Origin: an uncultured archaeon
GTDB taxonomy: Archaea > Altiarchaeota > Altiarchaeia > JAFGQM01
Length of the DNA stretch: 44,973 nt
Direction of reading: 5' to 3'
Assembly (NCBI GenBank): GCA_964592405.1
Contig: CAZQBY010000010.1
Location: 1-44,973, forward strand
The notes under the pieces are model-generated. The model made no database searches. It was not told the DNA's origin and saw only the letters and a program-made list of their open reading frames with translations. Numbering within the stretch: the stretch's first letter is position 1; each line of letters begins with the position of its first letter. The position numbers and the translations under genes are program-made. Below, piece after piece: positions 7,201-44,019 of this stretch.

Positions 7201-7793
7201 GAGCTGATGACCTTCGCCCCCAGCCAGTCGCCCAGCTCCTTCGCATTCCCGATTGTTGCGGACAGCCCAAGGATTTGAATATCCTGAAACATCTTTTTGA
7301 ACTTGGCTATCAGTATCTCGTAGGTAGGGCCCCTGTCTGTGGTTATGAGGTGTATCTCGTCTATGACCAATAACCGCACGTCACGGAACCAGTTGGGGCG
7401 CGAGCGCAGGATGGAGTCGCACTTCTCCGCTGTGGCTATGACAATATCAGCAGTGTTCCTCTGGGGGAGAAATTTGGAGTCCAGGTCTCCCATCTGGAGA
7501 TCCACGCGAAAGCCAAGCTTTTCCCATTTCTTAAAATCCTCATACTTCTCACTCGCCAGCGCGCGCAGCGGTACTATGTAAACCACCTGCCCGCCCTGTC
7601 TCATGGCGCTGAGCGCGGCCAGTTCGGCGATGACTGTCTTGCCGGATGCCGTCGGCGTGGAAACCACGAGTGACTCCCCATCCATGACTCCTGCCTTGAC
7701 GGCCTGCTCCTGCGGCGGGAAGAGTATTTCAATACCCTCACTCCTGAAAATCTCTTCTGCTTTCCTGTTCAGCCCCAAATCCGAAATCTTCAC
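4260..7793 (-). CDS. hel308: Hel308 (Hjm/Ski2-like) DNA helicase carrying one intein
   Basis: 1177 aa. The N-terminus LFPPQEQAVKAGVMDGESLVVSTPTASGKTVIAELA is the Hel308 Q-motif plus Walker A, and DEIH is present. Motif VI is split as ...IPVLEYLQM / intein / CGRAGRPKYDREGE, followed by the winged-helix and HhH C-terminal domains. The start appears to be GTG. Confidence 0.9.
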   Translation of the reverse strand: MKISDLGLNRKAEEIFRSEGIEILFPPQEQAVKAGVMDGESLVVSTPTASGKTVIAELAALSAMRQGGQVVYIVPLRALASEKYEDFKKWEKLGFRVDLQMGDLDSKFLPQRNTADIVIATAEKCDSILRSRPNWFRDVRLLVIDEIHLITTDRGPTYEILIAKFKKMFQDIQILGLSATIGNAKELGDWLGAKVISSDWRPVKLTQRIVQGKATIMFSEAKKTLDEGAQSLVFVNSRRSAEAVAEKFAEMFENLLDKGMKKALEETSQEILEALSTPTAQCRRLARAVKGGAAFHHAGLVNKQRALVEEAFRAGRIKVIAATPTLAAGLNMPARKVIIRDIKRYSGFGLDYIPVLEYLQMCLPYEERIVTDKGILPIGKVVEERIACSVLSFNVRMGELEFKPIRDYFKRKANELIELTTDKGYKLRLTKEHPIRTGRGWRAAEEVKIGDVVVFNPYVSGYSYIPDFLDLLPKGRLFVSGLGYLLERAKEETGKTDKELGKELEIDPKSIYHYKKDVKNMPLSCAIRLLDMLKLERKAHIKSVKTGYGSFLKIPDRIDEDILWLAGIIATDGNIQRTVDKRTRSEYIKIRVFNNDRGIIEKSKRVMERLVSGKVYVSYKGDGGRCEIGNTLLGRVLNEHFGIPFGNKSEKVSVPPFLLNAPKELVGAYLGGVFDGDGSYTVTKNKRFPTTDNQRILFVSSSKKFAVGIQELLLKLGIVAKLEGKRRRLRVEIRGKSAEFKKSHYLISFNRKDYIKTFARYAKPVKCKIGAQYKSYHNLDKYYRNRGQQVKLRIVGKRNIAFLGGIKVYNIGVEGNENYIASGFLVHNCGRAGRPKYDREGESVLLAANEYEKQFLEENYINGQPENIHSQLGVEPVLRMHVLASIASGFTRDKKSLMDFFGATFFAYEYGVGGEFKKKVDRVLRQLEKWDFIRSKGGASDDDLFVSASDIGKPDSGDERLVATPLGSRVSELYIDPETAHEFVQVFEDPNKMKRVNTFGLLDFMCSTTELRPLLRVRKKEEDEIWGLYYEQEDKLLTDTSDSDYLDRFKTALMLNDWIEERTEDWVLENYGMAPGLLRIKLDTARWLAYSFSELVLYIKTDKSLRRELQKLEMRLKHGIKEELIPLASIKGIGRVRARKLFNAGIRGKAGIKRIPAEKLKELLGEKTAERILRELD
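5310..6710 (-). mobile_element. Intein with LAGLIDADG homing-endonuclease domain inserted in Hel308 motif VI (about 467 aa; boundaries +/-3 nt)
   Basis: It begins with Cys (CLPYEERIVTDKGILPIG, block A) and ends GFLVHN, immediately followed by Cys of the C-extein (CGRAGRP). Two LAGLIDADG motifs are present, LWLAGIIATDGNI and LVGAYLGGVFDGDGSY. The flanking exteins rejoin into the canonical Hel308 QM-GRAGRP sequence. Confidence 0.8.
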
Positions 7794-7828
7794 AGCTTTT
7801 ATTTATCTCACCTACAATTAAAGCCACA

Positions 7829-8503
7829 ATGAGAACTCCTGCCATAATCCTAAACTTCAAGACGTATAAAGAAGCCACTGGCAAGGCAGCTATCAGATTG
7901 GCAAAGATGTGCGATGAGGTCGCGAAAGAGAAGGGTGCTGAGATTGTCGTCTGCCCGCAGCTGGCCGACTGCCAGAAGATTGCTGAGTCCGTGGATATCC
8001 CGGTGTTTGCTCAGCATCTTGATGACATCGACCCGGGCAGCCACACGGGTTGGGTGCTGATAGACTCGCTGGTTGAGATAGGCCTGGCGGGCTCGCTGGT
8101 CAACCACTCCGAGCACCGGATAGGAAGAGAAAAGATAGCAGGAGCCGTCAAGCGCCTCAGAAAGGCAAAAATGACCAGTGTCGTCTGCACGCGCGATGTC
8201 CAAGAAACAGCGGAGTTATCAGACCTCAAGCCAGATTTCCTCGCTATCGAACCACCGGAGCTTATAGGATCTGGAATCTCGGTATCGACTGCCCGGCCGG
8301 AGGTTGTTACAGGCGCTGTGAGCGCTGCCAGGAAAAATGTGCCTGTCCTCTGCGGAGCCGGAATCACAAAGGGAGTTGATGTCAAAAAGGCCCTAGAACT
8401 GGGTGCGAAGGGCGTCCTGCTGGCTTCGGGAGTAATCAAGGCTGAAGATCCAAAAAAGGTCCTGAGCGAACTGGCAAGTTATATGTTGGCATCACAGGTC
8501 TGA
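7829..8503 (+). CDS. tpiA: Triosephosphate isomerase (archaeal short type)
   Basis: 224 aa with IILNFKTYKEATG, NHSEHR and EPPELIGSG motifs. Confidence 0.9.
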   Translation: MRTPAIILNFKTYKEATGKAAIRLAKMCDEVAKEKGAEIVVCPQLADCQKIAESVDIPVFAQHLDDIDPGSHTGWVLIDSLVEIGLAGSLVNHSEHRIGREKIAGAVKRLRKAKMTSVVCTRDVQETAELSDLKPDFLAIEPPELIGSGISVSTARPEVVTGAVSAARKNVPVLCGAGITKGVDVKKALELGAKGVLLASGVIKAEDPKKVLSELASYMLASQV

Positions 8504-8505
8504 AC

Positions 8506-9897
8506 TTACTGCTCTTTGACCACCAGTATATTCCCTTTGAGGTGCATTTCTCTGGCAGGGTAGTATTTCCTCTTGATATTAATGCCCTTCAGTTCATTGC
8601 CGCGCATGATAATTTTTGTTACCCTGCCAAGTTTTTTACCCTTGGTTGAGACAACCTCCCTGCCCAGATACCTGTCCTCCAGTTGCTTCTTGCGTTCCAC
8701 ATAGTCAAAGAAGACTATCTTCAGCAGGTAGTGGCTCACGAGCAGGACAACAAAGGCTATGAGAAGGTTTATGAGCAGGTTCTGCATTGGATTAAAGCCC
8801 TTATTAATAGGTATGGTCGTGGAGTCAGAGCTTATTGAGATTATAAACCAGTAGAGACTTGCTGAAATATACTTTATCAGAACGCCGAGGATTATGATAT
8901 TGATATAGCGCTTTATCCTGAGATAGTTCTTTAGAAGGAAATTGTGAATGATAAAGCCCACTGCTATCATCGACACGGCTACTATCAGGAGGTCTATTGC
9001 AGCGAAATCCGCCCCCGTGCTTGAGAAGAGGAAGAAGTTCAGTGCCAGGATCGGCTGGCTACCAAAGGCATCGCCGACGCTTTTGGGATTGGCTACGGTG
9101 TTTGGCCGGTATATGGCATCAAGATTTCTCTGGACCTGGAGATATCCAGTCACCAACGACAACATCAACACAACCACCGCCAGCAGGTTGAACACCTTGT
9201 AGATGTTACCCTTCAGAAGGGAATCCCTCACCTCACTCAGTCCAGAGAATAACTGCTCATCATAGCCGAACCCCTTGGCTATTAGGTAAATACCAATTAT
9301 GGCGAGTATGGCCTCAACAATGGGTATGCCAAAGTAGGACAGTATAACAATCAGGAATATCAGAATACCAGGCAGTCCAAATATCGTCTTGGCCTGTGCA
9401 GGATTCTCACCTACCTTACGGAAGAAGTCCTGTATCTTGAAATAGGCGCTCTCCAGCGGACGTGCGAGCTTTACTGTAACTGTTTTGATGGAGAGTATCT
9501 TGGTTTCACTCTGGATGAGGGGTATGATCTCTTCATCTTCTGCTCCATCAGTAACGAGTACTACGCCTCTCGGCTTGAACATTTCTAGGACCCTGACAAG
9601 CTGGTTGCCTATCTTCTGGTCACTCTTGACACCCACCTGCTTATCCCCCGTCAGCGTCACTACCTCTACCCCGCCATGGTAGATGTGTTCGCTTTCCCTC
9701 TTGGTCTTAATGGCGGCGAATATGGCATTTACGTCAGAATCCTCCGGGTCGGCCATGGCCAAGGCATTGGCCGCCTTGAAATTCTCTGCCTCGCCGATTA
9801 TTGGGCCACGGATGGCTGCCTTGCTGCCCAAGTCATTGTCCCTGTCTATGCAGAGGACTAGGACCTCCACCCTTTTCAGCGCTCTTTCTGTGGGCAT
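8506..9897 (-). CDS. Polytopic membrane protein, DUF373-like N-terminal domain with a C-terminal PRC-barrel-like segment
   Basis: 463 aa. The N-terminus VLVLCIDRDNDLG resembles the archaeal DUF373 signature. Multiple TM helices follow, and the C-terminus LGREVVSTKGKKLGRVTKII looks like a PRC barrel. Confidence 0.6.
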   Translation of the reverse strand: MPTERALKRVEVLVLCIDRDNDLGSKAAIRGPIIGEAENFKAANALAMADPEDSDVNAIFAAIKTKRESEHIYHGGVEVVTLTGDKQVGVKSDQKIGNQLVRVLEMFKPRGVVLVTDGAEDEEIIPLIQSETKILSIKTVTVKLARPLESAYFKIQDFFRKVGENPAQAKTIFGLPGILIFLIVILSYFGIPIVEAILAIIGIYLIAKGFGYDEQLFSGLSEVRDSLLKGNIYKVFNLLAVVVLMLSLVTGYLQVQRNLDAIYRPNTVANPKSVGDAFGSQPILALNFFLFSSTGADFAAIDLLIVAVSMIAVGFIIHNFLLKNYLRIKRYINIIILGVLIKYISASLYWFIISISSDSTTIPINKGFNPMQNLLINLLIAFVVLLVSHYLLKIVFFDYVERKKQLEDRYLGREVVSTKGKKLGRVTKIIMRGNELKGINIKRKYYPAREMHLKGNILVVKEQ

Positions 9898-9969
9898 GAT
9901 GTCTGCATTAGTTTTGGCGCTCAGTCAATAAAAAACATCTATTTTTAAGGCTTCATGTCTTAATTTACC

Positions 9970-10977
9970 ATGGCCAAGAGGAGATCCGGATATGTAAAAA
10001 TAAAACCCCCAACTGAACCACTCCCAAAATCAAAAAAGGAGAGCCGGATAATCATAGAGGGCCAGAGGAAGCCGCTCACCATGTCACAGACACTCATTGC
10101 CTTCCTCATAGCGGTGATAATCTTCCTCTTTTTCAAGAGCATGGGTTTTGCACAGGAGGTTTACCTACTTCTGGCCGGAATATTCTTTATTTTGAGTATT
10201 TTCCTGTTTGGATCTATTGTGTTTTTGGAGACATACGAACGGGCAGTTGTGCAGAGATACGGACGATTCAACAGGGTTGCAGGGCCGGGCTGGGCAATCA
10301 TACTCCCGGTTATTGAAACCTACAACATAGTTGACATGCGTATCAAGACGCTGGATCTCTTGGGTTATGAGGCCATCACCAAGGACAACATCCGCCTCTA
10401 TCTGGACATTGTTGTCTATGCTAAGATAATTGATCCCTACAAGGCGGTGCTTGAAGTAAAGGATGTCAATACAGCCATTCTCACCTTTCTGAAATCCATC
10501 ACTAGGGAGACTGTGGGTAACCTAACTGCGGAGGAGGTTATATCCAATATTGCCAAGGTCAACGAGCTGTTGACTGGTGAGCGAGAGAGACTGAAAGAGG
10601 AATGGGGAGTTGACCTTATCTCGGTGGAGATACAGGAAATCACGCTTCCGGGAAGAGTCCAGGAGAGTATGCATGACCTCAGGTCAGCTGAGTATCAGCG
10701 GCAGGTCATTGAACAGAGGGCCTTTGCCCGTGAGGCCCTCATTAATGCGATACAGAGGGCGGCCAGTAAACTGGACAATCCCACACTGTCATATATGTAT
10801 CTTGAAGCGTTGAAGAAGGTCGCGGACGGAAAGGCTACCAAGCTTATATTCCCAATGGAGCTGACCCGGTTGGCTGAGTCGGTATCCAAGAACTTCGGCG
10901 CCGACAAGGACAAATTCCTGCAGGATATCATCAAAGCCTACCAGGAAACAGTGGCCAAGGATATCCCCAAGAAATGA
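9970..10977 (+). CDS. SPFH/band-7 (stomatin/prohibitin-like) membrane protein
   Basis: 335 aa. There is an N-terminal TM segment, then ETYERAVVQRYGRFNRVAGPGWAIILPVIE and an SPFH core followed by a coiled-coil tail. Confidence 0.85.
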   Translation: MAKRRSGYVKIKPPTEPLPKSKKESRIIIEGQRKPLTMSQTLIAFLIAVIIFLFFKSMGFAQEVYLLLAGIFFILSIFLFGSIVFLETYERAVVQRYGRFNRVAGPGWAIILPVIETYNIVDMRIKTLDLLGYEAITKDNIRLYLDIVVYAKIIDPYKAVLEVKDVNTAILTFLKSITRETVGNLTAEEVISNIAKVNELLTGERERLKEEWGVDLISVEIQEITLPGRVQESMHDLRSAEYQRQVIEQRAFAREALINAIQRAASKLDNPTLSYMYLEALKKVADGKATKLIFPMELTRLAESVSKNFGADKDKFLQDIIKAYQETVAKDIPKK

Positions 10978-10987
10978 TTTCTTCAAG

Positions 10988-11554
10988 ATGGCCAAGCCAA
11001 GTTACCCAATGATAGTGCCATTGCCAAAGCTTTTGATGGCTGTTTTCGGAATTCCGGAGGAGCGGGCCAATATCCTGATGAAACGCCATGGTTCTTATGC
11101 CCTCCGGATGCTGGCAATAAACGATTTTTGGCTGTGGCCACGGCCGGGAGGGTTTTCATACCTCTGCTTGGAACCTTGGCAGAGACACAGCACTGAAACA
11201 ATAGTGGCAGCCTATCTCAACAAGCCAGGCAGGGTCCGAAGCTTTGCCAATAAAGCAGCCAAACTCCTTCACAGCGCCAAGGAGGAACTTCCCGGAGGAG
11301 AAAACAGGCGTATGTATTCCCAATGGATGCGCGCCCATCGCCATATTGCCAAGAGACCGAAAAAGCTAATCCGGGCTATGGAGGAGCTGAGAGCCGAAGT
11401 AAATAACACACCAATTGAACATAGGGAGGCTAACAGCAGGATGGCCCGACAGTGGTTGCATCAGGTTGGCAGGACGGAATTGCTCCTGAGAATAGAACGT
11501 ATGCACGGGGGGCGAGGGAGCGGCGGACATGGAAAAAGGAAACCCGAGAAATGA
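10988..11554 (+). CDS. Hypothetical protein (uncertain; R/W/H-rich)
   Basis: This is the only long ORF in the 620-nt gap between the SPFH gene and trpB. Its composition is atypical, with no recognisable motif and no NfeD-like features. Confidence 0.3.
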   Translation: MAKPSYPMIVPLPKLLMAVFGIPEERANILMKRHGSYALRMLAINDFWLWPRPGGFSYLCLEPWQRHSTETIVAAYLNKPGRVRSFANKAAKLLHSAKEELPGGENRRMYSQWMRAHRHIAKRPKKLIRAMEELRAEVNNTPIEHREANSRMARQWLHQVGRTELLLRIERMHGGRGSGGHGKRKPEK

Positions 11555-11604
11555 AAAACTCCGGATATCTTCTTTTATATCAAAGCATCGTCTAACATTA
11601 ACTC

Positions 11605-12792
11605 ATGACTTATCCTGATTGCAAGGGAAAATTTGAAGACTACGGCGGCCAGTTTGTGCCGGAGGTCCTCATGGGTGCGGTGCATGAGCTGGCAGAGGCT
11701 TATGGGAAGTACAAGGATGACTCAAAATTCAAAAGGGAGCTGGATAGTCTTCTCACCCAATATGCCGGCCGGCCAACTGCGCTCACCTTCTGCGAGCGGC
11801 TGACGGAAGAGTATGGCCCGAAGATATATCTAAAACGCGAGGATTTGGCACATACGGGCGCCCACAAGATAAACAACGCGCTGGGGCAGGCCCTGCTGGC
11901 GAAGTATATGGGCAAGACGCGTCTTATAGCGGAGACTGGGGCCGGCCAGCACGGCGTGGCTACTGCGACCGCTGGCGCAAAACTGGGGCTCAAGACGGAT
12001 ATCTACATGGGGACTGTGGATATGAAGCGCCAAGAGCTCAATGTCTTCCGCATGAGGCTTATGGGTGCGCGCGTCATACCGGTAGAATCCGGCTCCAAGA
12101 CGCTCAAGGATGCCATCAACGAGGCCATGCGCGACTGGGTGGCCAGTTTCCCCACCACCCATTATCTCCTTGGCTCAGTTCTGGGACCACACCCATATCC
12201 AATGATGGTGCGTAACTTCCAGTCTGTGATAGGAAAAGAGCTCAAAAAGCAGATTATGGAGCGCGAAGGCCGGCTGCCCTCTGCGATAGTCGCCTGTGTG
12301 GGTGGCGGGAGCAATGCCATAGGCGCTTGGTATGAGTTTCTCGATGATAAGGACGTCGAACTCATAGGTGTTGAGGCTGGTGGAAAAGGCATCAGGGGAG
12401 GTGAGCATGCCGCGCGCTTCGCTGATGTCAAAAGGGGCAGGAGGGGCGTCCTCCATGGAACACACACATTCATCCTTCAGGATAAATACGGTCAGATAGC
12501 AACAACCCACTCTATATCTGCTGGCCTTGACTACTCTGCAGTGGGACCGGAGCACTCTATGCTCCACGACTTCAAGCGGGCGAAGTACACCTATGCCACA
12601 GATGATGAGGCATTAGAAGCTGTTAGGATTCTCTGTGAAAAAGAAGGTATTCTGCCTGCATTGGAAAGCGCACATGCGGTTGCACATGCATTGAAGATTG
12701 CATCTCATTATGACAGAAATGATATCATAGTCATAAACCTGTCGGGCAGGGGAGATAAAGACATTGACACCATAATAAAAAACCTGAGATGA
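11605..12792 (+). CDS. trpB: Tryptophan synthase beta chain
   Basis: 395 aa with [34 protein letters not shown] and GGGSNAIG motifs. Confidence 0.95.
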
Positions 12793-22488: not shown

Positions 22489-23985
22489 CTATGGCGGGCA
22501 ACTCAGGAGTGGCCTGACTTCAAATTCCCTTCCCCTCCCCCCAATATAGAGTTTTGCTTTTCTTGGACCGATTACATGAAAGCGGTGTATGACCCTGCTT
22601 TCTAGGGGCATCGGTAGCTCATCTTCATTCACAAAGATCGCCCCCGGGTGGTTGGTTATCAGCTTGTTTATTATCTCAGCCTGCATTATTCCATTTCCAA
22701 ACCATTCCATGTTTATGATTATGGGCAGTATATGCTCCATTCTCTTCTCTTCTATCTCAGAAAGCGATCCTGAGATCCTGAGCTCCTCTATAGCGTCCAG
22801 CAAATATAGCATGAAGGCAAGCCGCTTTCTCTTGTCCAGCTTCAGCATTGATATGTAAACGGTTTTGTTATCCTTGACCCAATTGTATATCATATCTCTG
22901 GTATTGGCTGTTTTTGTAAATATATCCCCATAGACCTTCTTTACAGTCCGCAGAATCCTAAGGGCTCGTGCCTTTGTCCGCTTGGTACCCTCCTCACCGG
23001 ATTTTATATCATCAATAATGCTCTCCACATTTTCAAGAGCCGCGGACTTCTGCAGTTTGTTCACGGATTGAAGTATCATTGTTGAGGCATCATCTGTTCC
23101 CAGCCCAAATAGCCTCCAGATGAATTGGGGGCTGGCCTGATTCAGGTTTATCCTAAACTTGGACTCCGGTTCTGATGGATCATATCTCTCCAGAGTGAAG
23201 CCCACATTATGGCTCTCAAGACCATATTTGCTGTAGTCATATGGATATGGGTTTGCCTGATCCAGCTTTAATGGGCACTTGCTGGAATCCAATATGAGCG
23301 GTATGGGCGACGCATCTATTATGGCATACTCGGCAAGCATCTGGGCTAGGTAGTTCCTTTCCTCCTCCGTTCCTTTTTTAATCGAGGTAAAACTCTCAAA
23401 TATGGTTTCTTCAACATTTACTATTCCATCCTTCGACTCTCCAATTGCAAAAACATCCAGCCTTTCCTTTTTGGGTTCCTCTCCCTGAGGAGCTATGCTC
23501 AGAAGGCTCAGGAGTATGGTCGGATTGCCCAAGATACTTGCAGAGTCCTGATAGGATGCATCCTTCAGGTCTATGACCTCCACCTTGTTTCTTTTGGCAA
23601 CCCTCTTTATTTCCTCTACCTTTTCGTTCAGACTCATAACCTTCTGAAAGACCACAGAGCCTATCTCCCTGCTTCCAAAGTCTACAGTGGTCGGTGGATT
23701 CAGAAGTATAAGGTAGGTTACATTTCTTCCCGGTATATACTGCTTTAGAATATTGATGTTCATGTCTCTGAGCTGCCCCTCTATCCTCTCTATACCCTTC
23801 GGGACAAGAAGGATCTTGTCCACTCTGATCATTATCCAGCTAACCTCACCAAATTTGGGGAAGATGGTTGTAAGCAGGACTTTGTCCTCGTTCTCATATA
23901 CTGCTACATTGAACTGGTTCCACACACCTCCAAACAGCCGCTCCCACGGCCCTCCGGGAAGGTTCCAGACGCTCTTGGATACCAT
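22489..23985 (-). CDS. Uncharacterised protein of about 499 aa (the ORF track extends it by 6 codons to 24003)
   Basis: A long uninterrupted ORF with no recognisable catalytic motif and no Walker A. The likely start is MVSKSVWNLPGG at 23985. The spacer to the divergently oriented gene is 42 nt and contains TTTAATAAAA. Confidence 0.6.
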   Translation of the reverse strand: MVSKSVWNLPGGPWERLFGGVWNQFNVAVYENEDKVLLTTIFPKFGEVSWIMIRVDKILLVPKGIERIEGQLRDMNINILKQYIPGRNVTYLILLNPPTTVDFGSREIGSVVFQKVMSLNEKVEEIKRVAKRNKVEVIDLKDASYQDSASILGNPTILLSLLSIAPQGEEPKKERLDVFAIGESKDGIVNVEETIFESFTSIKKGTEEERNYLAQMLAEYAIIDASPIPLILDSSKCPLKLDQANPYPYDYSKYGLESHNVGFTLERYDPSEPESKFRINLNQASPQFIWRLFGLGTDDASTMILQSVNKLQKSAALENVESIIDDIKSGEEGTKRTKARALRILRTVKKVYGDIFTKTANTRDMIYNWVKDNKTVYISMLKLDKRKRLAFMLYLLDAIEELRISGSLSEIEEKRMEHILPIIINMEWFGNGIMQAEIINKLITNHPGAIFVNEDELPMPLESRVIHRFHVIGPRKAKLYIGGRGREFEVRPLLSCPP

Positions 23986-24027
23986 TTTAATAAAACAATG
24001 CATAATTATAGTTGTTTGACTAAAAAG

Positions 24028-24954
24028 ATGAGTGGCTCCAAACCTGAAGAACTAGTTGCTAAGCTCTATGAGGATGGTATGAGTGATGACGAGGTAAGGG
24101 AGCAGCTGACGGATTTCGGCCTGTCGGGCAGGGAGATACGTCACCTCATAAAGAAGGCAAAAAAATTGATTAAGGAAGGCAAGACCCGGGCGAAAGGGCC
24201 GGCCGGGGGGCCTGATGAGGAACCCAAATCACCAGTTCCCGCGGAGCCTGATCCCATGATACAACAACTTATGAAGGAGGCTAGAGAATCATCGGCCACC
24301 AGTGAGTCCGGCCCAGCCGAGTTAGAGCCTTTTGAACCTGAAACCCAGGCAGTTCCCGGGGAGGAAACCGGCGGCTTTGAGGAGTCCAAGGAAGTAGAAG
24401 AAGGGGTCAAAAAACCAGTAGAAAAAGAAGAAAAACCCAAGAAGGGCGGCTTTCTCTCAGGACTCTTCAAAGAAAGAAAAAAAGAGAGCACTGAGAAGGA
24501 GGAGAGGATTTCAAGGGCGGAGCGCCGTTCTTCCAGAAGGGCTCACGATGCTGAATATATGGCCAAGATGAAACGCCTGAGCATGATAAAGGAGGCCATA
24601 TCCAAACCTGTTGCCATGCCCAAGGAACCGGAAGCAGCTCCGGCGGAGAAGACAGAAGAAGGGATTGAGAAAGTGCCCGAGATGGAAGTGCCTTTGGAGG
24701 GCGCTACTGCAAAAGAAGGTGTGGAAGAAAGGAGCGAGGATGTGGAAGAAAGGGGCGATGTAAAGGAAACATCTGAAAAGGTCACAACTAAGGCTCTAAC
24801 TACAGAAGAAGAGAAAAAAATGGACGAAGAAACTGCAAAAAAGCTGATGGATGGAATGGACAAGCTAGAGACTGAAATGGGCGAGATCAAGCAGTTGCTT
24901 GATACCCTGCGCGAGCTGAATATTAAGCTGATTGAGCTCATGGAGAAAAAGTAG
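24028..24954 (+). CDS. Acidic E/K/P-rich protein: small N-terminal domain, long disordered linker, C-terminal coiled coil
   Basis: MSGSKPEELVAKLYEDGMSDDEVREQLTDFGLSGREIRHLIKK, then a low-complexity acidic region, ending DKLETEMGEIKQLLDTLRELNIKLIELMEKK. It is divergent from the 499-aa gene. Confidence 0.55.
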   Translation: MSGSKPEELVAKLYEDGMSDDEVREQLTDFGLSGREIRHLIKKAKKLIKEGKTRAKGPAGGPDEEPKSPVPAEPDPMIQQLMKEARESSATSESGPAELEPFEPETQAVPGEETGGFEESKEVEEGVKKPVEKEEKPKKGGFLSGLFKERKKESTEKEERISRAERRSSRRAHDAEYMAKMKRLSMIKEAISKPVAMPKEPEAAPAEKTEEGIEKVPEMEVPLEGATAKEGVEERSEDVEERGDVKETSEKVTTKALTTEEEKKMDEETAKKLMDGMDKLETEMGEIKQLLDTLRELNIKLIELMEKK

Positions 24955-24985
24955 GGTTTATAAAGCCCCAAACCGAATTTATAGT

Positions 24986-25642
24986 ATGGCCATAAAGACC
25001 TCCCACCTGCTGGGCCTCCTGACACTGGGATTCATAATACTCCTGATAGGCTGGCCCTGGTGGCTTGGTATAGGAATAATCCTCCTGTCAATGGCTGTAG
25101 CAGTTAGTGGTGAGAGCGAGGAGCCGGCACCCATGCCCGTGCCTGTGGAGAGGGCTGGTCAGGCTGCAGTGGCCGGAGTGGCGCAACCCGGTTCACAGCA
25201 GGCCGCACAGGCCGAGCCAAAGTACTTCGACGATTGGGGTGAAGACCAGCCAAACTGGACATTTCCGGACATAAGCAAGGACCTGAAGTTCAAGATATCT
25301 ACACCCTCGGATGCCATAGGTGATATGAAGACTATGAAGGACCCATATCATGATGGTGTGGATCACATAGGCGCGGTTGGTGCCAGAACCGGTACATTTA
25401 CCCTCGACCCGAATAATATAATCAGGTTCAAGGACGATTTTAGGATAAAGATAGATCAGATGAGTAAGGAATCAGGTGTTAGTGATGAGGGCCAGATGGG
25501 ATGGGAAAAGGGTGCATATACCTTCAGACTCTACTACAGAACCTCCCCAAAGAGGGCTTGGCCGCGCAGGACAGCTCTTCAATGGAAAGCTCCCCCACCA
25601 GGATACAAGCCAAAGCGCGTTGAATATGCATCATATGATTGA
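24986..25642 (+). CDS. Membrane protein (2 N-terminal TM helices plus a soluble domain of about 150 aa)
   Basis: The likely start is MAIKTSHLLGLLTLGFIILLIGWPWWLGIGIILL. The ORF-track start at 24932 overlaps the upstream gene. It is followed by genes coupled through an ATGA overlap. Confidence 0.5.
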   Translation: MAIKTSHLLGLLTLGFIILLIGWPWWLGIGIILLSMAVAVSGESEEPAPMPVPVERAGQAAVAGVAQPGSQQAAQAEPKYFDDWGEDQPNWTFPDISKDLKFKISTPSDAIGDMKTMKDPYHDGVDHIGAVGARTGTFTLDPNNIIRFKDDFRIKIDQMSKESGVSDEGQMGWEKGAYTFRLYYRTSPKRAWPRRTALQWKAPPPGYKPKRVEYASYD

Positions 25643-26082
25643 TGATGAACCTGTCGATAATCGTTGTCATTGCCGGAGTATTCTTCCTGCTTATGCCGCA
25701 GACTATGTGGATTGGGTTGGCGTTCTTGGCCCTGGGGACAATCACCTATCTAGTATTTCAGAAGAAGCCGGCAGGTATGCCTGTTGGCCGTCCGAGATAT
25801 CTTTCAGCTTGGCCGCAGATTGCTCCACAGCAGCAAGCGGGTGTTGGCTGGTCCATCAAGAGACCGCTGGGCGGGGAAAGGAACCCTGTAGCCCTAGCCC
25901 GGAACCCGTTGGAGCAGCCAGAAAGTGGTCCCAAGCTGGAAAATGGTGTGTTTAGCCTTCCACTCCCAATGAACAACGAGGTGGCCCAGTTCGTGAACTT
26001 GAAGTATAAAGTGCCAACCAAGGCCAAGGGTTTCACCGAGGAGGCTGAGAAACCCTCTCACCCACTAATACCAGGGTTTTAA
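25639..26082 (+). CDS. Small membrane protein (2 TM) with a Pro/Gln-rich tail
   Basis: MMMNLSIIVVIAGVFFLLMPQTMWIGLAFLALGTITYLVF... There is a 4-nt overlap with the upstream gene. Confidence 0.5.
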   Translation: MMMNLSIIVVIAGVFFLLMPQTMWIGLAFLALGTITYLVFQKKPAGMPVGRPRYLSAWPQIAPQQQAGVGWSIKRPLGGERNPVALARNPLEQPESGPKLENGVFSLPLPMNNEVAQFVNLKYKVPTKAKGFTEEAEKPSHPLIPGF

Positions 26083-26117
26083 CATTTATTAAGCTTTTGC
26101 CATTAACTTAAAACAAG

Positions 26118-26417
26118 ATGAACACAGTCCTGGTATTGGTCATGCTCATACTGCTTATCTTTGCCCTGAAGGAGGGTATGGTGTGGGTTGCTCTTGGCGT
26201 GGGTCTGATTATGGTCCTCGTTGCGACGAGTGATGAGGCCGGCAAGAAGAGAGACCGGTTTGTATATCCAAGCGATCAACTGCCGACCATTGAATCTCCT
26301 AAGGAACAGATGCTGAGGGTTAAATACCAGCCTAAGTGGGACGGTAATAACTGGTGGGAAGAGATAGCAGACCACTGGGGCACATCCATAGGCAGAACTA
26401 TAGGCCTGCTGCGATAG
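26118..26417 (+). CDS. Small membrane protein (2 TM)
   Basis: MNTVLVLVMLILLIFALKEGMVWVALGVGLIMVLVAT... It lies on the same strand, 36 nt after the previous gene. Confidence 0.45.
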   Translation: MNTVLVLVMLILLIFALKEGMVWVALGVGLIMVLVATSDEAGKKRDRFVYPSDQLPTIESPKEQMLRVKYQPKWDGNNWWEEIADHWGTSIGRTIGLLR

Positions 26418-26447
26418 CCTCTGTTGAATCCAGTCCAAATATTCAAA

Positions 26448-27707
26448 TCATCCAAAGATAGCGTCTATACGGTCTATGGCCTCTGATACCAGAGTTTTCC
26501 TGACCAAGGAGTTCAGGAACGGGGTGTCCATGTTTGAAATTGCCAGCCTGACATCACTCTGCTCTACGGTATCATGTCCGTAAATGGCTGCTATCAATCT
26601 TGAGAGTGGGTCCAGGTATACAATCATACCATTGGAGAGCAACAGGGTTTCTATGGCATAATCAACAATCAGGACGCCCTTGTAATCCAATAAGTATTCC
26701 GCGAGGTAGGCCACACTCATCTGGAAGCCAACACGCCTTACCAGAAGCTTCATGTAATCTGCCAGCTCCTCAAGTGCTCCTTCCGAATAGCAAAGGCTCT
26801 CAAATGTGTTCCACCTGTATGAGTTTCTGCCAGCCCTGACTGACCACCAGCCGGCCCTGACGGGTAACCGCATAACCTTTTTGCCCTTGGGCAGAAAGAT
26901 TATATTATCAAGATCCCTGAAAACGTTCCTCCAGCGGTCTTTTGATGGCGAATAATCCAGAATACCTGTGATATTGGGAATCCTCTTCAATATCCTCTTA
27001 TCCTGCATTGTGGCATCAGCCGTGTCATAGGGTTCGCCTGTTATGACGCCATGGCTCGCCAGCGTGACTTGATCCGACCATGCTCTGATGGTTTCTATCA
27101 TATTCCCGGGTTCTTTCACCCTCCCTAGGAGATCTACGGCCTTGTCCATGAATCTGAGCTTCCTGTGCCTCTCCATAAACGCAGGAGGATATGTTGCCCT
27201 GATATGCTCGGCCAGGGTTTTCCTTCTCTTCAGGGCCATGAGCGTAGCCTTTCCATTCTCTGTGTGCATGGCAATGCTCCTTTCTATGTCACGCCTTTTA
27301 ATCCTCGGCTGTGATGGGGAGCCAACCTGGGGACATTTGAGACTTATGTCCACAACCAAATTGTTGTCAAATCCCGGAGTCACCATTAGGGGATAAGAAC
27401 GGCATACCGTCGGCCGGTTCTCATACATGTGGCACAAACCATCTCTCCCCAGTTTCTCACAAAAACCATCGGGTCCAAGCCTCAGGATGGGCCGGGTTGT
27501 ATATCCCCCCAGAGCAGGATAGGCTATCTGTCCATCCAGGCCTGCCTTTTCAAGCCTTTCTATGTCCAGATGAGACAATTCGACCGTGATGCAACATATA
27601 CCACACTTCTCGCAGTTATGTGTTATACCAATTGGAAAGACCGACTCCCATGGAATCTCCCTTCTGCCTATCTTGGTTTTTCCATGGAAATACCTAACCC
27701 CGGTCAT
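26448..27707 (-). CDS. CxxCxxCC (YkgJ/UPF0153-like) putative Fe-S or Zn-binding domain protein with a C-terminal extension of about 300 aa
   Basis: The N-terminal HNCEKCGICCITVE...GFCEKL..GLCHMYENRPTVCRSYP matches the CxxCxxCC putative metal-chelating domain. The remainder has no recognisable domain. Confidence 0.65.
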   Translation of the reverse strand: MTGVRYFHGKTKIGRREIPWESVFPIGITHNCEKCGICCITVELSHLDIERLEKAGLDGQIAYPALGGYTTRPILRLGPDGFCEKLGRDGLCHMYENRPTVCRSYPLMVTPGFDNNLVVDISLKCPQVGSPSQPRIKRRDIERSIAMHTENGKATLMALKRRKTLAEHIRATYPPAFMERHRKLRFMDKAVDLLGRVKEPGNMIETIRAWSDQVTLASHGVITGEPYDTADATMQDKRILKRIPNITGILDYSPSKDRWRNVFRDLDNIIFLPKGKKVMRLPVRAGWWSVRAGRNSYRWNTFESLCYSEGALEELADYMKLLVRRVGFQMSVAYLAEYLLDYKGVLIVDYAIETLLLSNGMIVYLDPLSRLIAAIYGHDTVEQSDVRLAISNMDTPFLNSLVRKTLVSEAIDRIDAIFG

Positions 27708-27754
27708 AATGTATGATTAGGAAGTCCTCTATAAAAAGATTTGAATGAGTTAGG

Positions 27755-28105
27755 TTAATAGCCCATCGGCAGCCCCAGGCCCCCCATGTCAACGCCCCCC
27801 ATTCCATAGGCGTCCATGCCGCCTGCCTGAGATTCCTCCTTGCCGTGAAGAACGAATATTATAAACAACCCACCAGCGATGAGGAGGGCATAAAGCATAT
27901 AATCTGTGCTGCCGGACTTGGAGGCCTCATAGCCGACGTATAAAACCCCCAACGCGATTATGGCGACTATTATATGGTGGGCCCCACCCATCATTATCAG
28001 GAAGATGGCACCAACCCCAATCCCCATATACATCAACGTCTGGTTACCAGAAGTAAGGGCCAGGCCCATGAGGATAAGGAAAAGCAAAAAGGTGGAGGAG
28101 TCCAT
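27755..28105 (-). CDS. Small membrane protein (3 TM) with a Gly/Met-rich C-terminal tail
   Basis: ...GGMDAYGMGGVDMGGLGLPMGY. It is the third gene of the minus-strand operon. Confidence 0.5.
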   Translation of the reverse strand: MDSSTFLLFLILMGLALTSGNQTLMYMGIGVGAIFLIMMGGAHHIIVAIIALGVLYVGYEASKSGSTDYMLYALLIAGGLFIIFVLHGKEESQAGGMDAYGMGGVDMGGLGLPMGY

Positions 28106-28112
28106 CTTCTAC

Positions 28113-28454
28113 TCATTTTTTGCCCGGATAATTGATCCAGCTGCCTGTCCCACCAGTGGGTATCGGCGCAGGATACATCATTCCTTGGGGCGGATTCCTC
28201 AAGAAGCCCATATAAGCCCTGGTCATCTGGCCCTCCACTACCCCTGCTGTAAACCCTCCTATAAACAAATAGCCAAACATCACGAAGAAGAACAGAAACG
28301 CTATCCAAACATGTTGAAAGAATATAAAAAAGACTATAAACGCGGATATTGTTATGCCCAGCACTCTTGACTGGGTAGATTCCCTGACCTTGCGGAAAAG
28401 GTATATCAGGGCTATGATACATATCAGTAGGTGGAGGTCTTCAAAGAGGCCCAT
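28113..28454 (-). CDS. Small membrane protein (3-4 TM) with a Pro/Gly-rich tail
   Basis: MGLFEDLHLLICIIALIYLF...NPPQGMMYPAPIPTGGTGSWINYPGKK. It lies 7 nt upstream of the next gene. Confidence 0.5.
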   Translation of the reverse strand: MGLFEDLHLLICIIALIYLFRKVRESTQSRVLGITISAFIVFFIFFQHVWIAFLFFFVMFGYLFIGGFTAGVVEGQMTRAYMGFLRNPPQGMMYPAPIPTGGTGSWINYPGKK

Positions 28455-28545
28455 ATTATCTTTATTGCAGGTTGTTTAAAAATCAGGCTTCTCAATCAGT
28501 CTGTGGCTGGGTTCTTGATATAGAGACTGGAGGCATGAAAGCGCA

Positions 28546-29784
28546 TCACATCCTGTATCCGCATCTCGCACAAAACATATAGTCCGGCTCAACAGCGGCC
28601 CCACATTTTGGACACACACTAACTCCCTCTGCCCGTTTCTCTCCAGCACTTTTCTTGGATGGTACCTCCTTAGACTTCTCGCCTCTCAGGATAATAATCA
28701 TAGTGACAATCACCACCAAGGCGATGGTGATGACAATAATGGCAATAATGGGCAATGTATTATCCCCAGTTTGTGTTGTTTGTACCCTCCATGGGGGTGT
28801 ACAGTCTTGTGGACAGTTGCAGTAATTCTCCCCCTTGCCACACTCATTGTTACCGCATCTGGCGCAAACAGGGCTTCCATTACATGGTTCATCCGGACAC
28901 CTGCCATCATCCTGTGGCACCTCACAGCCTATCTGTTCAAGCCCCTCGCAGCAACCGAGAGCTACAGGATATGTAGTGATGCTCTGGCCCTCGGCTACAC
29001 ATTCTGGTATGAGGCCGAGATTTGGACAGTCCTCAGGACAAACGGTTCTGTTTTCTCCCTCTCCGCACACACCATCACCACAGACCACTTTCTCTTCTGG
29101 GCTTTCTTCACAGTCTTCGGGACATGTTCCTTCATCTTCTCCGAGAGAGGTATCACATATGCCGTCACCACACTCAAAGAACTTGCCTGATTCATCACCA
29201 ACAATGAACGTTACATATCTGTTTAAGAGCCGGAGGGCATATCTCCCCGGCTTCTCCGGTGTATAGGTGAGGATGCCCTGCCTGTCGGTGTGTGTTGATT
29301 CTATCAAAACACCATCCCTATATGTGGAGCTCACGAAGTCTGTTACCACTGTGATGCTTCCTCCCCAGTGTGTAGCCCCTCTAAGCTGTTCGGATTCCAT
29401 TCTCCCCCCATAATATATCTCCACATCACAGACTATCGGCTTGCCGTTTCGTGTATCGGTCACACTGAGCACAAATGGTTCCCCCACTCTCTTGTCTTTG
29501 GGCATCACGGTAAAAGTGGATGGCCAGTCTTCCTTGACACTCTTGGTTTTTATCGGCCGGCATTCCACCTGACATATCCTCTCATTAATGCACAACACAC
29601 TTTTGACTTCCCCCTCGCCGCAATACTCCTCGCCCGGTTTCATACATGCGGCGTTGCTGCCACAGCTGTATTCAAAGATTACACTGTCCTGTGTGGAGGT
29701 TATGATGTTAAACGAATAGGCTGATGCTAGGACTGTAGACACCATTAAAAACGCTACCAAATGTGATAAAATGCGCACGTCCAC
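28546..29784 (-). CDS. Type-I membrane/surface protein: signal peptide, beta-rich ectodomain, three Cys-rich repeats (CGDGxC...CPxDC), TM helix, cytoplasmic zinc ribbon
   Basis: There is a signal peptide MDVRILSHLVAFLMVSTVLASAYS. The repeats are CGDGICDTSLGEDEGTCPEDC, CGDGVCGEGENRTVCPEDC and CGNNECGKGENYCNCPQDC. The TM helix is LPIIAIIVITIALVVIVTMIIIL and the C-terminal zinc ribbon is CPKCGAAVEPDYMFCARCG. Confidence 0.65.
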   Translation of the reverse strand: MDVRILSHLVAFLMVSTVLASAYSFNIITSTQDSVIFEYSCGSNAACMKPGEEYCGEGEVKSVLCINERICQVECRPIKTKSVKEDWPSTFTVMPKDKRVGEPFVLSVTDTRNGKPIVCDVEIYYGGRMESEQLRGATHWGGSITVVTDFVSSTYRDGVLIESTHTDRQGILTYTPEKPGRYALRLLNRYVTFIVGDESGKFFECGDGICDTSLGEDEGTCPEDCEESPEEKVVCGDGVCGEGENRTVCPEDCPNLGLIPECVAEGQSITTYPVALGCCEGLEQIGCEVPQDDGRCPDEPCNGSPVCARCGNNECGKGENYCNCPQDCTPPWRVQTTQTGDNTLPIIAIIVITIALVVIVTMIIILRGEKSKEVPSKKSAGEKRAEGVSVCPKCGAAVEPDYMFCARCGYRM

Positions 29785-29946
29785 TCTGTCCCTTTTTTTG
29801 GATTTTTGGATTTATTATTGGACCTGCAATTAAAATGGCTCGGCAACCCCAAATCAATCTTTTTATATATTCCATCTCTAAATAGAGGCTTCTGACTAGC
29901 CGAATAAACAAGATGGGGGCCAACCCCCTTTAATGTCAAAACGCCG

Positions 29947-42432: not shown

Positions 42433-44019
42433 TTACATATATCGACCGCGTTTCTCAGCCTGCTCTAAGCGCCTGAGGACCTCCGACCTGCCATATCCCT
42501 TCAGAACATTTGCCCATAGTTCATGAACCTTGGCCGGATGGTTTGCATTGAGAGCCTTCTTCAGCAGGAGGAGATCTGTGGCTTTGTCCTCAGTTTTCCT
42601 AGATGTTCCGCCAAGCCCGAAGTCTATAAAATACAGCTCACCATCCCTGACGATGATGTTAGATGTGGTCAAGTCGCCATGTATTATATTCTGTTCATGG
42701 AGCTTTCTGACAAACGAACCCACCTTCACAGCCAGTTCGGGATTGGATTCAATCTCCCTGTATAGTGGTCTGCCGTTTATGTATTCCATTACAAATGTAT
42801 AATTTTCCCTTCTCACATCAAAGACCTCCGGTGTTGGGACTCCTGCTGTGCGCGCACTGTTGAGCAGTTTTGGCTCTCTGGCTGTCCGCAATTTACGTAT
42901 CCCAGTATCTATCTCTTTAATCCTGTATGCTTTCTCAATCCTCCTCTTCACCATTCTGCCATCCTCCAAGGTCAACACAGCCTCGGCGCCCTTCCACCTC
43001 CCCGGAGTCTCCGGCCTGGAGCCTTGTCTTGTCTTAGCCCAGCTTATCACCACCTGGTCGGTCCGGAAGTTCTGGTTGGTCCGGGTTTCTTCTATCTTAT
43101 GCCTTACGCCGCTCTTGTACATCACGAGCCCGGTCCACGCTATCATCACGCCGTTGTCGCCGCAGTAGCCCTTTGGCACGGAAAAGGACGCGTCGTTGTC
43201 CTTGGCCATTATATCCAACATCTCCTGGAGCCTCTTGTTGTTGGCGACGCCCCCCGTCAGCAAAAGACAGTCGGACTTGAGGTGGCATAGCGCGCGCTCA
43301 GTGGCCTCGGTCATCATCGCGAAGGAGGTCTCTTGGAGAGAATAGCACACGTCCTCGATGCTGTTGTCCTGCAGCTTCTTCAGTGATTCGGTGTATATCC
43401 CGGAGAAGGACAAGTCGTTGCCCTTGACAACGTATGGCAGCTGGATGTAATTCTCCCCTTTGCGCGCAAGCTCCTCGATTTTCGGGCCGGCCGGATGCGC
43501 AAGCCCCGCCTTTCTGCCAAATTTGTCCAGCATGTTGCCGACGCCGATGTCCAGTGTCTCGCCGAAGACGCGGTAGCGCATGTCCTTGAACATGAGTATC
43601 TGCGTGTTGCCGCCCGACACATAGAGCACGAGCGGCTGGACCCAGCCGGGGTATTCTTTCCTAGCGAGCATGTTGCCTATCTCTATGTGCGCCACACAGT
43701 GGTTCACGCCGATAATAGGCACATCCAAGAAAAGTGCCAGTGCACGTGCACCCACACCAACGTTTGCCAGACATGCTCCCAGTCCCGGACCTTGGGAGAA
43801 AGAAACCAGATTTATATCCTCTCTTTCTATCCCTGCCTCTTTTAGGGCCTCCCTTACAGCCGGGCCAAAATTATCGGCTATGTATCTGGAAGCCTCTCTT
43901 GGGTGGATTCCTCCCTCTCTTGGAGAATAGGTTCTTCTAACATCAGCCAGGATGTTTCCATCATCAACTATACCAATCCCTAGCGTGTGCGCTGTTCCTT
44001 CAATGCCTAGAGAAATCAC
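42433..44019 (-). CDS. kae1-bud32: Kae1-Bud32 fusion protein (tRNA t6A37 threonylcarbamoyltransferase fused to the Bud32 kinase/ATPase)
   Basis: The N-terminus is GIEGTAHTLGIGIV...GVNHCVAHIEIG (Kae1 metal-binding HxxH). The C-terminus is HGDLTTSNIIV...DFGLG (Bud32 catalytic loop and DFG). Confidence 0.9.
   Translation of the reverse strand: MISLGIEGTAHTLGIGIVDDGNILADVRRTYSPREGGIHPREASRYIADNFGPAVREALKEAGIEREDINLVSFSQGPGLGACLANVGVGARALALFLDVPIIGVNHCVAHIEIGNMLARKEYPGWVQPLVLYVSGGNTQILMFKDMRYRVFGETLDIGVGNMLDKFGRKAGLAHPAGPKIEELARKGENYIQLPYVVKGNDLSFSGIYTESLKKLQDNSIEDVCYSLQETSFAMMTEATERALCHLKSDCLLLTGGVANNKRLQEMLDIMAKDNDASFSVPKGYCGDNGVMIAWTGLVMYKSGVRHKIEETRTNQNFRTDQVVISWAKTRQGSRPETPGRWKGAEAVLTLEDGRMVKRRIEKAYRIKEIDTGIRKLRTAREPKLLNSARTAGVPTPEVFDVRRENYTFVMEYINGRPLYREIESNPELAVKVGSFVRKLHEQNIIHGDLTTSNIIVRDGELYFIDFGLGGTSRKTEDKATDLLLLKKALNANHPAKVHELWANVLKGYGRSEVLRRLEQAEKRGRYM

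Follow-up and report, generated by a model that had tools for sequence, protein, structure and literature searches.

The question raised by the DNA analysed here, a stretch of 44,973 nucleotides (nt) from an uncultured archaeon of the Altiarchaeota (GCA_964592405.1, contig CAZQBY010000010.1; this whole stretch is called the window), is whether four neighbouring genes on its minus strand make up a unit and, if so, what that unit does. A preliminary description had taken these genes, A to D, for a single operon in which A, a surface protein with a cytoplasmic zinc ribbon, would act as a receptor or adaptor signalling across the membrane. The four co-oriented open reading frames (ORFs) are present at the sizes it gave (412, 113, 116 and 419 amino acids, aa); a 91-nt gap between A and B had gone unmentioned. 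They are, however, the edge of a larger locus of nine genes that occupies positions 22489-29784 of the window. The nine-gene locus is confined to Altiarchaeota-type archaea. We read it, with a probability of about 0.4, as encoding a lineage-specific membrane complex built on a non-catalytic HerA-like hub, to which A and D are accessory. The nine genes are as follows, those of A to D being taken from the ORF list.

28546 to 29784, minus strand: gene A, 412 aa, GTG start
28113 to 28454, minus strand: gene B, 113-aa membrane protein, core
27755 to 28105, minus strand: gene C, 116-aa membrane protein, core
26448 to 27707, minus strand: gene D, 419 aa, soluble, facultative
26118 to 26417, plus strand: gene E, 99 aa, transmembrane (TM) hairpin, core
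25639 to 26082, plus strand: gene F, 147 aa, TM hairpin, core
24986 to 25642, plus strand: gene G, about 218 aa from the conserved start MAIKTS, core
24028 to 24954, plus strand: gene H, about 308 aa from the conserved start MSGSKPEEL, soluble, core
22489 to 23985, minus strand: gene I, 498 aa from the conserved start MVSKSVW, predicted HerA/VirB4-fold protein, core

For G, H and I, homologue alignments served to set the start codons; the longest ORFs of these three genes extend 18, 10 and 6 codons, respectively, beyond the conserved starts. Spacing is tight throughout. The A/B, B/C and C/D gaps are 91, 7 and 47 nt, the stop codons of the convergent genes D and E lie 30 nt apart, the start of F overlaps the end of G by 4 nt, and H and I diverge across 42 nt. 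Hydropathy analysis, which we used for topology, gives B, C, E, F and G as small integral membrane proteins, and D, H and I as soluble. When all nine proteins were scanned against Pfam, NCBIfam, PHROGs and PADLOC, the only matches above threshold were Zn_Ribbon_1 in A and CxxCxxCC in D. All PDB sequences were searched with profiles of A, B, C, D, E, H and I, without a significant match, and Rfam and tRNA scans of the window were empty.

The extent of the locus was apparent from comparison of 12 distinct related loci on Altiarchaeota-type metagenome contigs, reached via contigs that encode homologues of A and through genome and metagenome scans; a metagenome scan with B added at least two short loci. 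Mapped by tblastn, the order is (A)-B-C-(D) on one strand, E-F-G-H on the opposite strand and I back on the first. No locus long enough to show them lacks B, C, E, F, G, H or I. Two genes are less constant. A lies upstream of B in 9 of the 12 loci and is missing from the other three (L014, L015 and L017), and D is missing from two of 11 (L009 and L017), so that A-B-C-D stand adjacent in only 7 of 12. Sequence divergence parallels this division into core and optional genes. Conservation is highest for B, C, E and I (63-76%, 68-94%, 60-84% and 48-80% identity to the window proteins, respectively) and lowest for A, D, F and G, with identities of 38-58% for A, 29-70% for D and 32-65% for F. Since A to D are conserved as proteins on other contigs, they are real genes. 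Neighbourhood conservation, which the preliminary description had proposed as a check, is thus found on other contigs, but the unit itself had been drawn wrongly: it comprises nine genes, and both of the large proteins that framed the original four, A and D, are dispensable.

The junction between A and B is a site of insertion in two loci, L001 and L008. In L001 the inserted gene (9279-12413, plus strand) encodes a surface protein of 1044 aa, of the NosD/beta-helix kind. Towards its end it has a Cys repeat in degenerate form, CGDNRCNCDETCHTCKEDC, and then a Pro-rich stalk, a beta-sandwich-like segment and a C-terminal TM anchor, a stalk-and-anchor design like that of A in a protein unrelated to it. 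In L008 the insert is a 228-aa cytoplasmic protein (5817-6503, plus strand) belonging to a conserved group of about 203-228 aa without a family match, which is also found beside B in L015 (4743-5354, minus strand) and upstream of B in L017. This protein occurs in either orientation, both in loci that lack A and alongside A. A Y1 (IS200/IS605-type) transposase gene lies between NurA and A in L001 (7371-7853, minus strand). Taken with the presence or absence of dCMP deaminase and NurA, the transposase, the NosD protein and the 203/228-aa protein make the left edge of the locus look like a hotspot of insertion and deletion.

Whether A to D are transcribed together can be approached through promoter-like boxes, of which the window has three upstream of these genes.

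29829 to 29835, minus strand: TATA-like TTTTAAT, 51 nt upstream of the A start
28476 to 28482, minus strand: TATA-like TTTTTAA, 28 nt upstream of the B start codon; predicted B-C promoter
27731 to 27737, minus strand: TATA-like TTTTTAT, 30 nt upstream of the D start codon

Against a background of 0.0008 TATA-like heptamers per nt per strand in the window, a TTTTTA[AT] or TTTTAAA box stands 27-37 nt before the B ATG in 11 of 12 loci, including those that lack A, and a TATA-like box 27-36 nt upstream of D in all 8 of the loci examined that have D. The box before A is weaker than these two; a similar one is found in 6 of 8 loci, at variable distance. No TATA-like box is found upstream of C in any of 7 loci. 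Most loci also have a run of five or six T residues between the stop codon of the gene upstream and the B box. Boxes and T runs of these kinds fit archaeal TATA boxes and oligo-T terminators. From the boxes together with the gene spacing we therefore predict the transcription units A; B-C; D; H-G-F-E; and I. A single operon would carry a promoter before A only, with no promoters or terminators inside it, and its four genes would constantly co-occur; what we find instead are predicted boxes upstream of both B and D, losses of A and of D, and the insertions between A and B in L001 and L008. With oligo-T runs as well, and two facultative members, the proposed four-gene operon is not borne out, and within A-D the only likely shared transcription unit looks, from sequence, to be B-C.

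These same observations might be taken further, to argue that there is no functional unit at all, and that A, B-C, D, H-G-F-E and I, though all lineage-specific, have no connection beyond the collinear region that they share. Every locus has the block at the same place, with RNA polymerase on one side and PPDK on the other, and the order of the flanking genes (DUF2070-GNAT-PPDK-dCMP deaminase-NurA on one side, cupin GPI-RpoA''-RpoA' on the other) is conserved around the block in the same contigs, as expected if synteny were the whole explanation. The separate promoter-like boxes of A, B and D, and the gain and loss of A and D independently of the rest, point the same way. Simple collinearity is harder to reconcile with B-C and E-F-G-H-I never being interrupted at divergence down to 48% identity, when insertions and deletions do hit A, D, the A/B junction and both flanks. 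Seven of the nine products, moreover, are membrane proteins or membrane-tethered, and the families tested (A, I and D) share one equally narrow distribution. We consider synteny without function unlikely, but a possibility to be taken seriously.

An indication of what the locus might encode comes from protein I. An AlphaFold2 model, computed from an alignment of 20 homologues (predicted local distance difference test, pLDDT, 86; predicted template modelling score, pTM, 0.81), has a RecA-like ASCE fold of the HerA/VirB4 type and is structurally closest to HerA and VirB4. Further structural matches include HerA proteins, DptH, the coupling proteins TrwB and DotL, and FtsK and EccC domains. At the level of sequence the membership is not detectable: I has no match in Pfam (DUF87/HerA included), NCBIfam, PHROGs or PADLOC, and matches no PDB chain at E<=10. 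Its 29 homologues are all at least 43% identical.

The modelled fold allows the catalytic positions to be inspected directly. The junction between strand 199-203 and helix 207-223, where the P-loop should lie, reads SIKKGTEEERNY, and none of the 20 homologues has the Walker A pattern [AG]xxxxGK[ST] at this position. All 20 instead have S-[IV]-[KR]-[KR]-G-[TS]-x-E-E-R (S-I-K-K-G-T-E-E-E-R in the window protein). The catalytic Glu of Walker B is likewise missing from the 20 sequences, the corresponding strand reading PLILD[SF][SG], with the Asp replaced by Asn or Thr in three homologues. One homologue, that of L015 (P0083), does contain a stretch fitting the Walker A pattern, GEISLGKT at residues 177-184, but this belongs to a predicted beta-hairpin that precedes the position of the structural P-loop. 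The other homologues have GxxxxG followed by a hydrophobic residue in this hairpin, and we regard the stretch as a chance match. On the strength of the model, I is thus a protein with the fold of the HerA/VirB4 branch of the FtsK-HerA ATPases, and with both Walker A and the Walker-B Glu missing it is very probably no longer catalytic.

Defence systems contribute several HerA proteins (HerA-DUF4297, Sir2-HerA, DptH and TdpA) to the best structural matches of I, and its matches in BFVD are HerA-like phage proteins. This raises the possibility that a mobile element has integrated here, or that the locus encodes an anti-virus defence system with a HerA-like protein at its base. PADLOC, however, found nothing in the locus and PHROGs nothing meaningful, and the locus contains no integrase, nuclease or effector domain. 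Its chromosomal position is the same in all loci and the ATPase motifs of I are gone, which leaves this explanation with very little to recommend it.

E, F and G share a layout in which two N-terminal hydrophobic helices with a short turn between them are followed by a conserved C-terminal domain of 60-170 aa that is probably cytoplasmic. That of E is Trp-rich (LRVKYQPKWDGNNWWEE), and that of F ends in PLIPGF. The hairpins of F and G are suggestively alike (hhalign probability 73%, E=3e-5); paralogy of E and F, and likewise of B and C, was considered and found no support in the hhalign comparison. Small hairpin proteins can also duplicate within the locus: L007 has an extra E paralogue of 122 aa, 43% identical to the window E, between E and F (11497-11865, minus strand), and L010 has an equivalent one (7604-7834). 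H is built differently, with a conserved 45-residue N-terminal helical domain, a Lys/Glu/Pro-rich linker and a C-terminal coiled coil. In the window its linker carries the motif KKGGFLSGLFKERKK, and one to two copies of the corresponding pattern, basic-[FL][FL]xG[LIMF]F-basic, are present in 8 of 12 H homologues.

A HerA/VirB4-like protein next to two-helix membrane proteins could be viewed as a working transfer apparatus of the type IV secretion system (T4SS) or Ced kind, with I as the motor, the E, F and G hairpins as pilins, and B plus C as a split channel. The structural neighbours of I agree with this, as does the total of 7 TM helices in B and C. E, F and G are small and have two hydrophobic helices, which is how CedA1/CedA2 and VirB2 have been described (PMC9905601). 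On the other hand, Walker A and Walker B are lost from I in all 20 homologues, and the locus encodes no single VirB6/CedA-like protein of 6-7 TM helices. Unlike pilins, E, F and G have sizeable C-terminal domains. Profiles of B, C and E, searched against a PDB set that includes the T4SS and Ced/Ted entries, match nothing at E<=10. Finally, the locus is chromosomal, syntenic and near-universal in its clade rather than mobile. We therefore think an active transfer system improbable.

B and C are the core membrane proteins on the other side of the locus. Hydropathy gives them about three and four TM helices, respectively, in agreement with the preliminary description, and their unusual Gly/Met/Pro-rich tails are conserved in composition, with the ends GGTxSW (B) and GGMDxYG...GLPMGY (C) recurring across 10 homologues. 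C has an NQT sequon in its first loop. Both proteins have invariant polar residues, H8, C12 and Q47-H48 in B and H43-H44 in C, along with a near-invariant H87 (Lys in L015), and the invariant His and Cys fall within TM helices. A match of B to MrpG (7qru_G, E=0.086) was dismissed as noise arising from TM composition.

D follows B-C in most loci, and its CxxCxxCC domain was called correctly in the preliminary description, as was the further region of about 300 aa.

27384 to 27617, minus strand: CxxCxxCC domain of D (PF03692), residues 31-108, by Pfam

The match scores 37.5 bits against a gathering cut-off of 23 (E=4e-9). Eight Cys are invariant, among them C32, C35, C38 and C39 in 18 sequences, and the region of about 300 aa after the N-terminal domain is helical. 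A word-indexed search with D returned 6 relatives, and an exhaustive HMMER search of 1.84 billion proteins gave about 17 full-length representatives, followed by about 1,500 proteins that share only the N-terminal Cys domain. Many CxxCxxCC proteins of 330-430 aa, however, have a weak, collinear second match to D near the C-terminus. When the D family was compared with 21 such proteins, profile to profile, positions 5-406 could be aligned (E=2e-41), which places D, as a divergent branch, within a broad family whose members are long CxxCxxCC proteins. Members of this wider family stand beside restriction-modification genes (L018), MoxR/VWA/metallophosphatase genes (L020) or unrelated genes (L021). 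B and C are never found near them, and the association of D with B-C is therefore lineage-specific.

The only characterised relative that we found for the long CxxCxxCC proteins is FliB, a membrane-associated, oligomeric [4Fe-4S] flagellin lysine methylase that depends on S-adenosylmethionine (SAM) and has eight conserved Cys (PMC8598068). D as FliB itself was rejected, there being no match to the NCBIfam model NF038110 at E<=0.1 (its equivalog cut-off is 85 bits).

The conserved His and Cys of B and C and the Cys cluster of D suggest another possible arrangement, a small membrane redox or ion module independent of E-I, in which the ligands for a metal or haem would be these residues in the TM helices of B and C, and an Fe-S centre would come from D. 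The invariant H8, C12 and H48 of B and H43-H44 of C (and the near-invariant H87) would suit such a role, as would the eight invariant Cys of D, in a domain that holds [4Fe-4S] in FliB. The weak match of B to MrpG could be added, but it is not significant. D, moreover, is missing from two loci and has its own promoter box, its wider family occurs in unrelated contexts without B or C, and redox-partner genes are absent from the locus. A redox module is thus a poor fit, and we give it little credence.

Protein A, one of the two facultative members, is the one on which the signalling proposal depended. It has the layout of a type-I membrane protein: a signal peptide is followed by an N-terminal Cys-rich domain, a domain resembling a beta-sandwich and the Cys repeats, and beyond a single TM helix lies the zinc ribbon, in the cytoplasm. 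The signal-like hydrophobic segment comprises residues 5-23 by hydropathy. The repeats were located by regular expression and the TM helix by a hydropathy scan.

29110 to 29172, minus strand: Cys repeat 1, residues 205-225, CGDGICDTSLGEDEGTCPEDC
29026 to 29082, minus strand: Cys repeat 2, residues 235-253
28801 to 28857, minus strand: Cys repeat 3, residues 310-328, five-Cys subtype CGNNECGKGENYCNCPQDC
28693 to 28749, minus strand: TM helix, residues 346-364
28552 to 28614, minus strand: zinc ribbon, residues 391-411, CPKCG...CARCG, PF13240 (Zn_Ribbon_1)

The public gene call for A (P0001, 399 aa) starts at an internal Met, which would cut off most of the signal peptide; we favour the GTG at 29784 because it gives a proper signal peptide and a better fit to the homologues. 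There are about 11 full-length homologues, and all have the signal peptide, a six-Cys N-terminal domain, the DUF4198-like domain, repeat 1, the TM helix and the zinc ribbon. The zinc ribbon scores 28.5 bits against a gathering cut-off of 25, with C391, C394, C405 and C408 invariant in 10 sequences. The signal-like segment, the three repeats, the TM helix and the ribbon of the preliminary description are all borne out, but the third repeat is not strictly tandem, as a 56-residue Cys-rich insert separates it from the second. The beta-rich ectodomain that had been described has only a sub-threshold match to DUF4198, a beta-sandwich family, at residues 95-187, to point to it. Repeat 1 is the sole repeat kept in all homologues, and alignments show its C205, C210, C221 and C225 to be invariant. 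Repeats 2 and 3 are variable, the former being lost in the L001 and L007 homologues.

The preliminary description had asked whether the repeat matches one already defined. No Pfam or NCBIfam model matches it, and sub-sequence scans of A at E<=10 gave only DUF4198 and RET_CRD, both sub-threshold (the latter at 19.6 bits against a cut-off of 26). The pattern C-G-D-G-x-C-(5-16)-C-P-x-[DE]-C nevertheless occurs in 1-12 copies in about 40 other, otherwise unrelated secreted proteins that we retrieved, which carry FecR, Kazal, RCC1, SH3, LTD or other domains, or a C-terminal anchor; the five-Cys subtype of repeat 3 recurs in many unrelated proteins. The repeat reads, from this sequence distribution, as a generic and promiscuous extracellular stalk module, and as such it is uninformative on signalling specifically.

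This bears on the proposal that A-D form a trans-membrane signalling or adaptor operon, in which A senses and its zinc ribbon relays to B, C and D. In its favour, the four lie close together in one orientation and are adjacent in 7 of 12 loci, and A does reach from an ectodomain through a single TM helix to a zinc ribbon in the cytoplasm. B-C, however, persist where A (three loci) or D (two loci) is absent, other genes intervene between A and B, and the independent boxes and oligo-T runs separate the would-be partners. None of the nine proteins has a signalling domain in the four libraries scanned; a receptor or adaptor function for A gained no support, though it was not refuted either. With the repeat a generic stalk, we regard the signalling operon as very unlikely.

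We can now return to the reading of the locus as a lineage-specific membrane complex on a non-catalytic HerA-like hub, with A and D accessory, and ask how it might work. In this model I would no longer hydrolyse ATP but would serve as a cytoplasmic ring or hub. H would tether it to the membrane, through its basic, amphipathic MinD-like motif and its coiled coil, and B, C, E, F and G would form a membrane platform whose cytoplasmic tails and domains complete the attachment. Such a complex would descend from a machine of the HerA/VirB4 type, a class at work both in type IV secretion and in DNA import by the archaeal Ced/Ted systems. A would be encoded in a variable slot next to the complex that various surface proteins can fill interchangeably. 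Its ectodomain would be held out on a Cys-repeat stalk, and its zinc ribbon would be the only part able to touch cytoplasmic components. D would be a cytoplasmic protein with a metal or Fe-S Cys cluster, most plausibly modifying or maturing some component at the membrane.

Several points weigh against this reading. The flanking housekeeping genes are equally syntenic in the same loci and, as all loci belong to one syntenic clade, neighbourhood conservation alone does not prove that B-C work together with E-I, or that A and D work with either group. The MinD-like motif of H is short, and its strict pattern is absent from 4 of 12 homologues. The AlphaFold model of D (pLDDT 47) is unusable. Hydropathy detects no VirB6/CedA-like channel protein of 6-7 TM helices in the locus, the largest candidates being B (3 TM) and C (4 TM), and it is not evident what would power a complex that lacks an ATPase.

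A more specific version would have the locus encode an Altiarchaeota-specific membrane machine, made of a dead HerA/VirB4-like ring, a coiled-coil tether with a MinD motif and five small membrane proteins, that functions in envelope biogenesis or in the anchoring of surface proteins. We put this forward only tentatively, and think it doubtful in this detail. Altiarchaeota are uncultured, double-membraned archaea. A conserved, lineage-restricted locus next to the RNA polymerase genes, in which a degenerate HerA/VirB4-fold protein is joined by seven membrane-associated proteins, is a concrete candidate for lineage-specific envelope biology. Were the hub model correct, it would show clearly how an ATPase of secretion or translocation can be reused as a scaffold without catalysis; it would also define a new class of apparatus derived from such an ATPase and working differently. 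Independently of the model, the CGDGxC...CPxDC repeat, widespread in surface proteins of uncultured archaea and bacteria and without a model in two curated libraries, merits definition as a family.

The remainder of the window contains the flanking genes, namely RNA polymerase B/A'/A'', cupin GPI, PPDK, GNAT, DUF2070, XPD, TFB, Kae1-Bud32 and Hel308. The Hel308-type helicase (4260-7793, minus strand; 1177 aa; DEAD, Helicase_dom4_arc and HHH_5) is split by a LAGLIDADG homing-endonuclease intein at roughly residues 389-828. At the other end, 42433-44019 on the minus strand encodes a 528-aa fusion of Kae1 (TsaD) with Bud32, a RIO-type kinase; the Kae1-Bud32 fusion is known from some Euryarchaeota.

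How, then, does the locus compare with known systems? The nearest are the HerA/VirB4 proteins, including CedB and TedB, from which I differs in lacking Walker A and the Walker-B Glu (20 of 20 sequences) and any match at the sequence level. The setting of CedB and of T4SS ATPases also differs, in that the locus of I has no polytopic partner like VirB6 or CedA. HerA invites a comparison with its partner NurA. A stand-alone NurA gene lies 0-2 genes from the locus in L001, L005, L008, L009 and L015, with no HerA, Mre11 or Rad50 beside it, and counted over all contigs NurA is found beyond A in six or seven distinct loci. Its closeness to a locus whose far end encodes I could be a syntenic coincidence or a relic of a HerA-NurA pair. 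Since NurA is absent from the window and from L014, we treated it as synteny and not as a partner of I, which is not adjacent to Mre11 or Rad50 either.

H can be set beside MinD, whose C-terminal end is a membrane-targeting amphipathic helix. In E. coli this end is EEEKKGFLKRLFGG, and its KKGFLKRLFGG resembles the H motif, a resemblance of short motifs and not of homologous proteins. The motif is C-terminal in MinD but internal in H, where it sits in a disordered linker, and H has no ATPase domain. D and FliB share eight conserved Cys and the arrangement of an N-terminal Cys cluster with about 300 further residues. They differ in that a SAM-binding motif was not identified in D, and in that the D subfamily is confined to its lineage; the FliB model NF038110 reaches at best 27.5 bits against 85 in the wider D family, over the N-terminal part only. 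Finally, A has the CGDGxC...CPxDC repeat in common with surface proteins of Altiarchaeota, other uncultured archaea and bacteria. Some repeat proteins of Altiarchaeota are about 650 aa long, with 5-10 copies and a C-terminal TM anchor, and A has only 1-3 copies. What sets A apart from the other repeat proteins is the combination, present in all 11 homologues, of a family-specific N-terminal Cys domain and a beta-sandwich-like domain outside the cell with a zinc ribbon in the cytoplasm.

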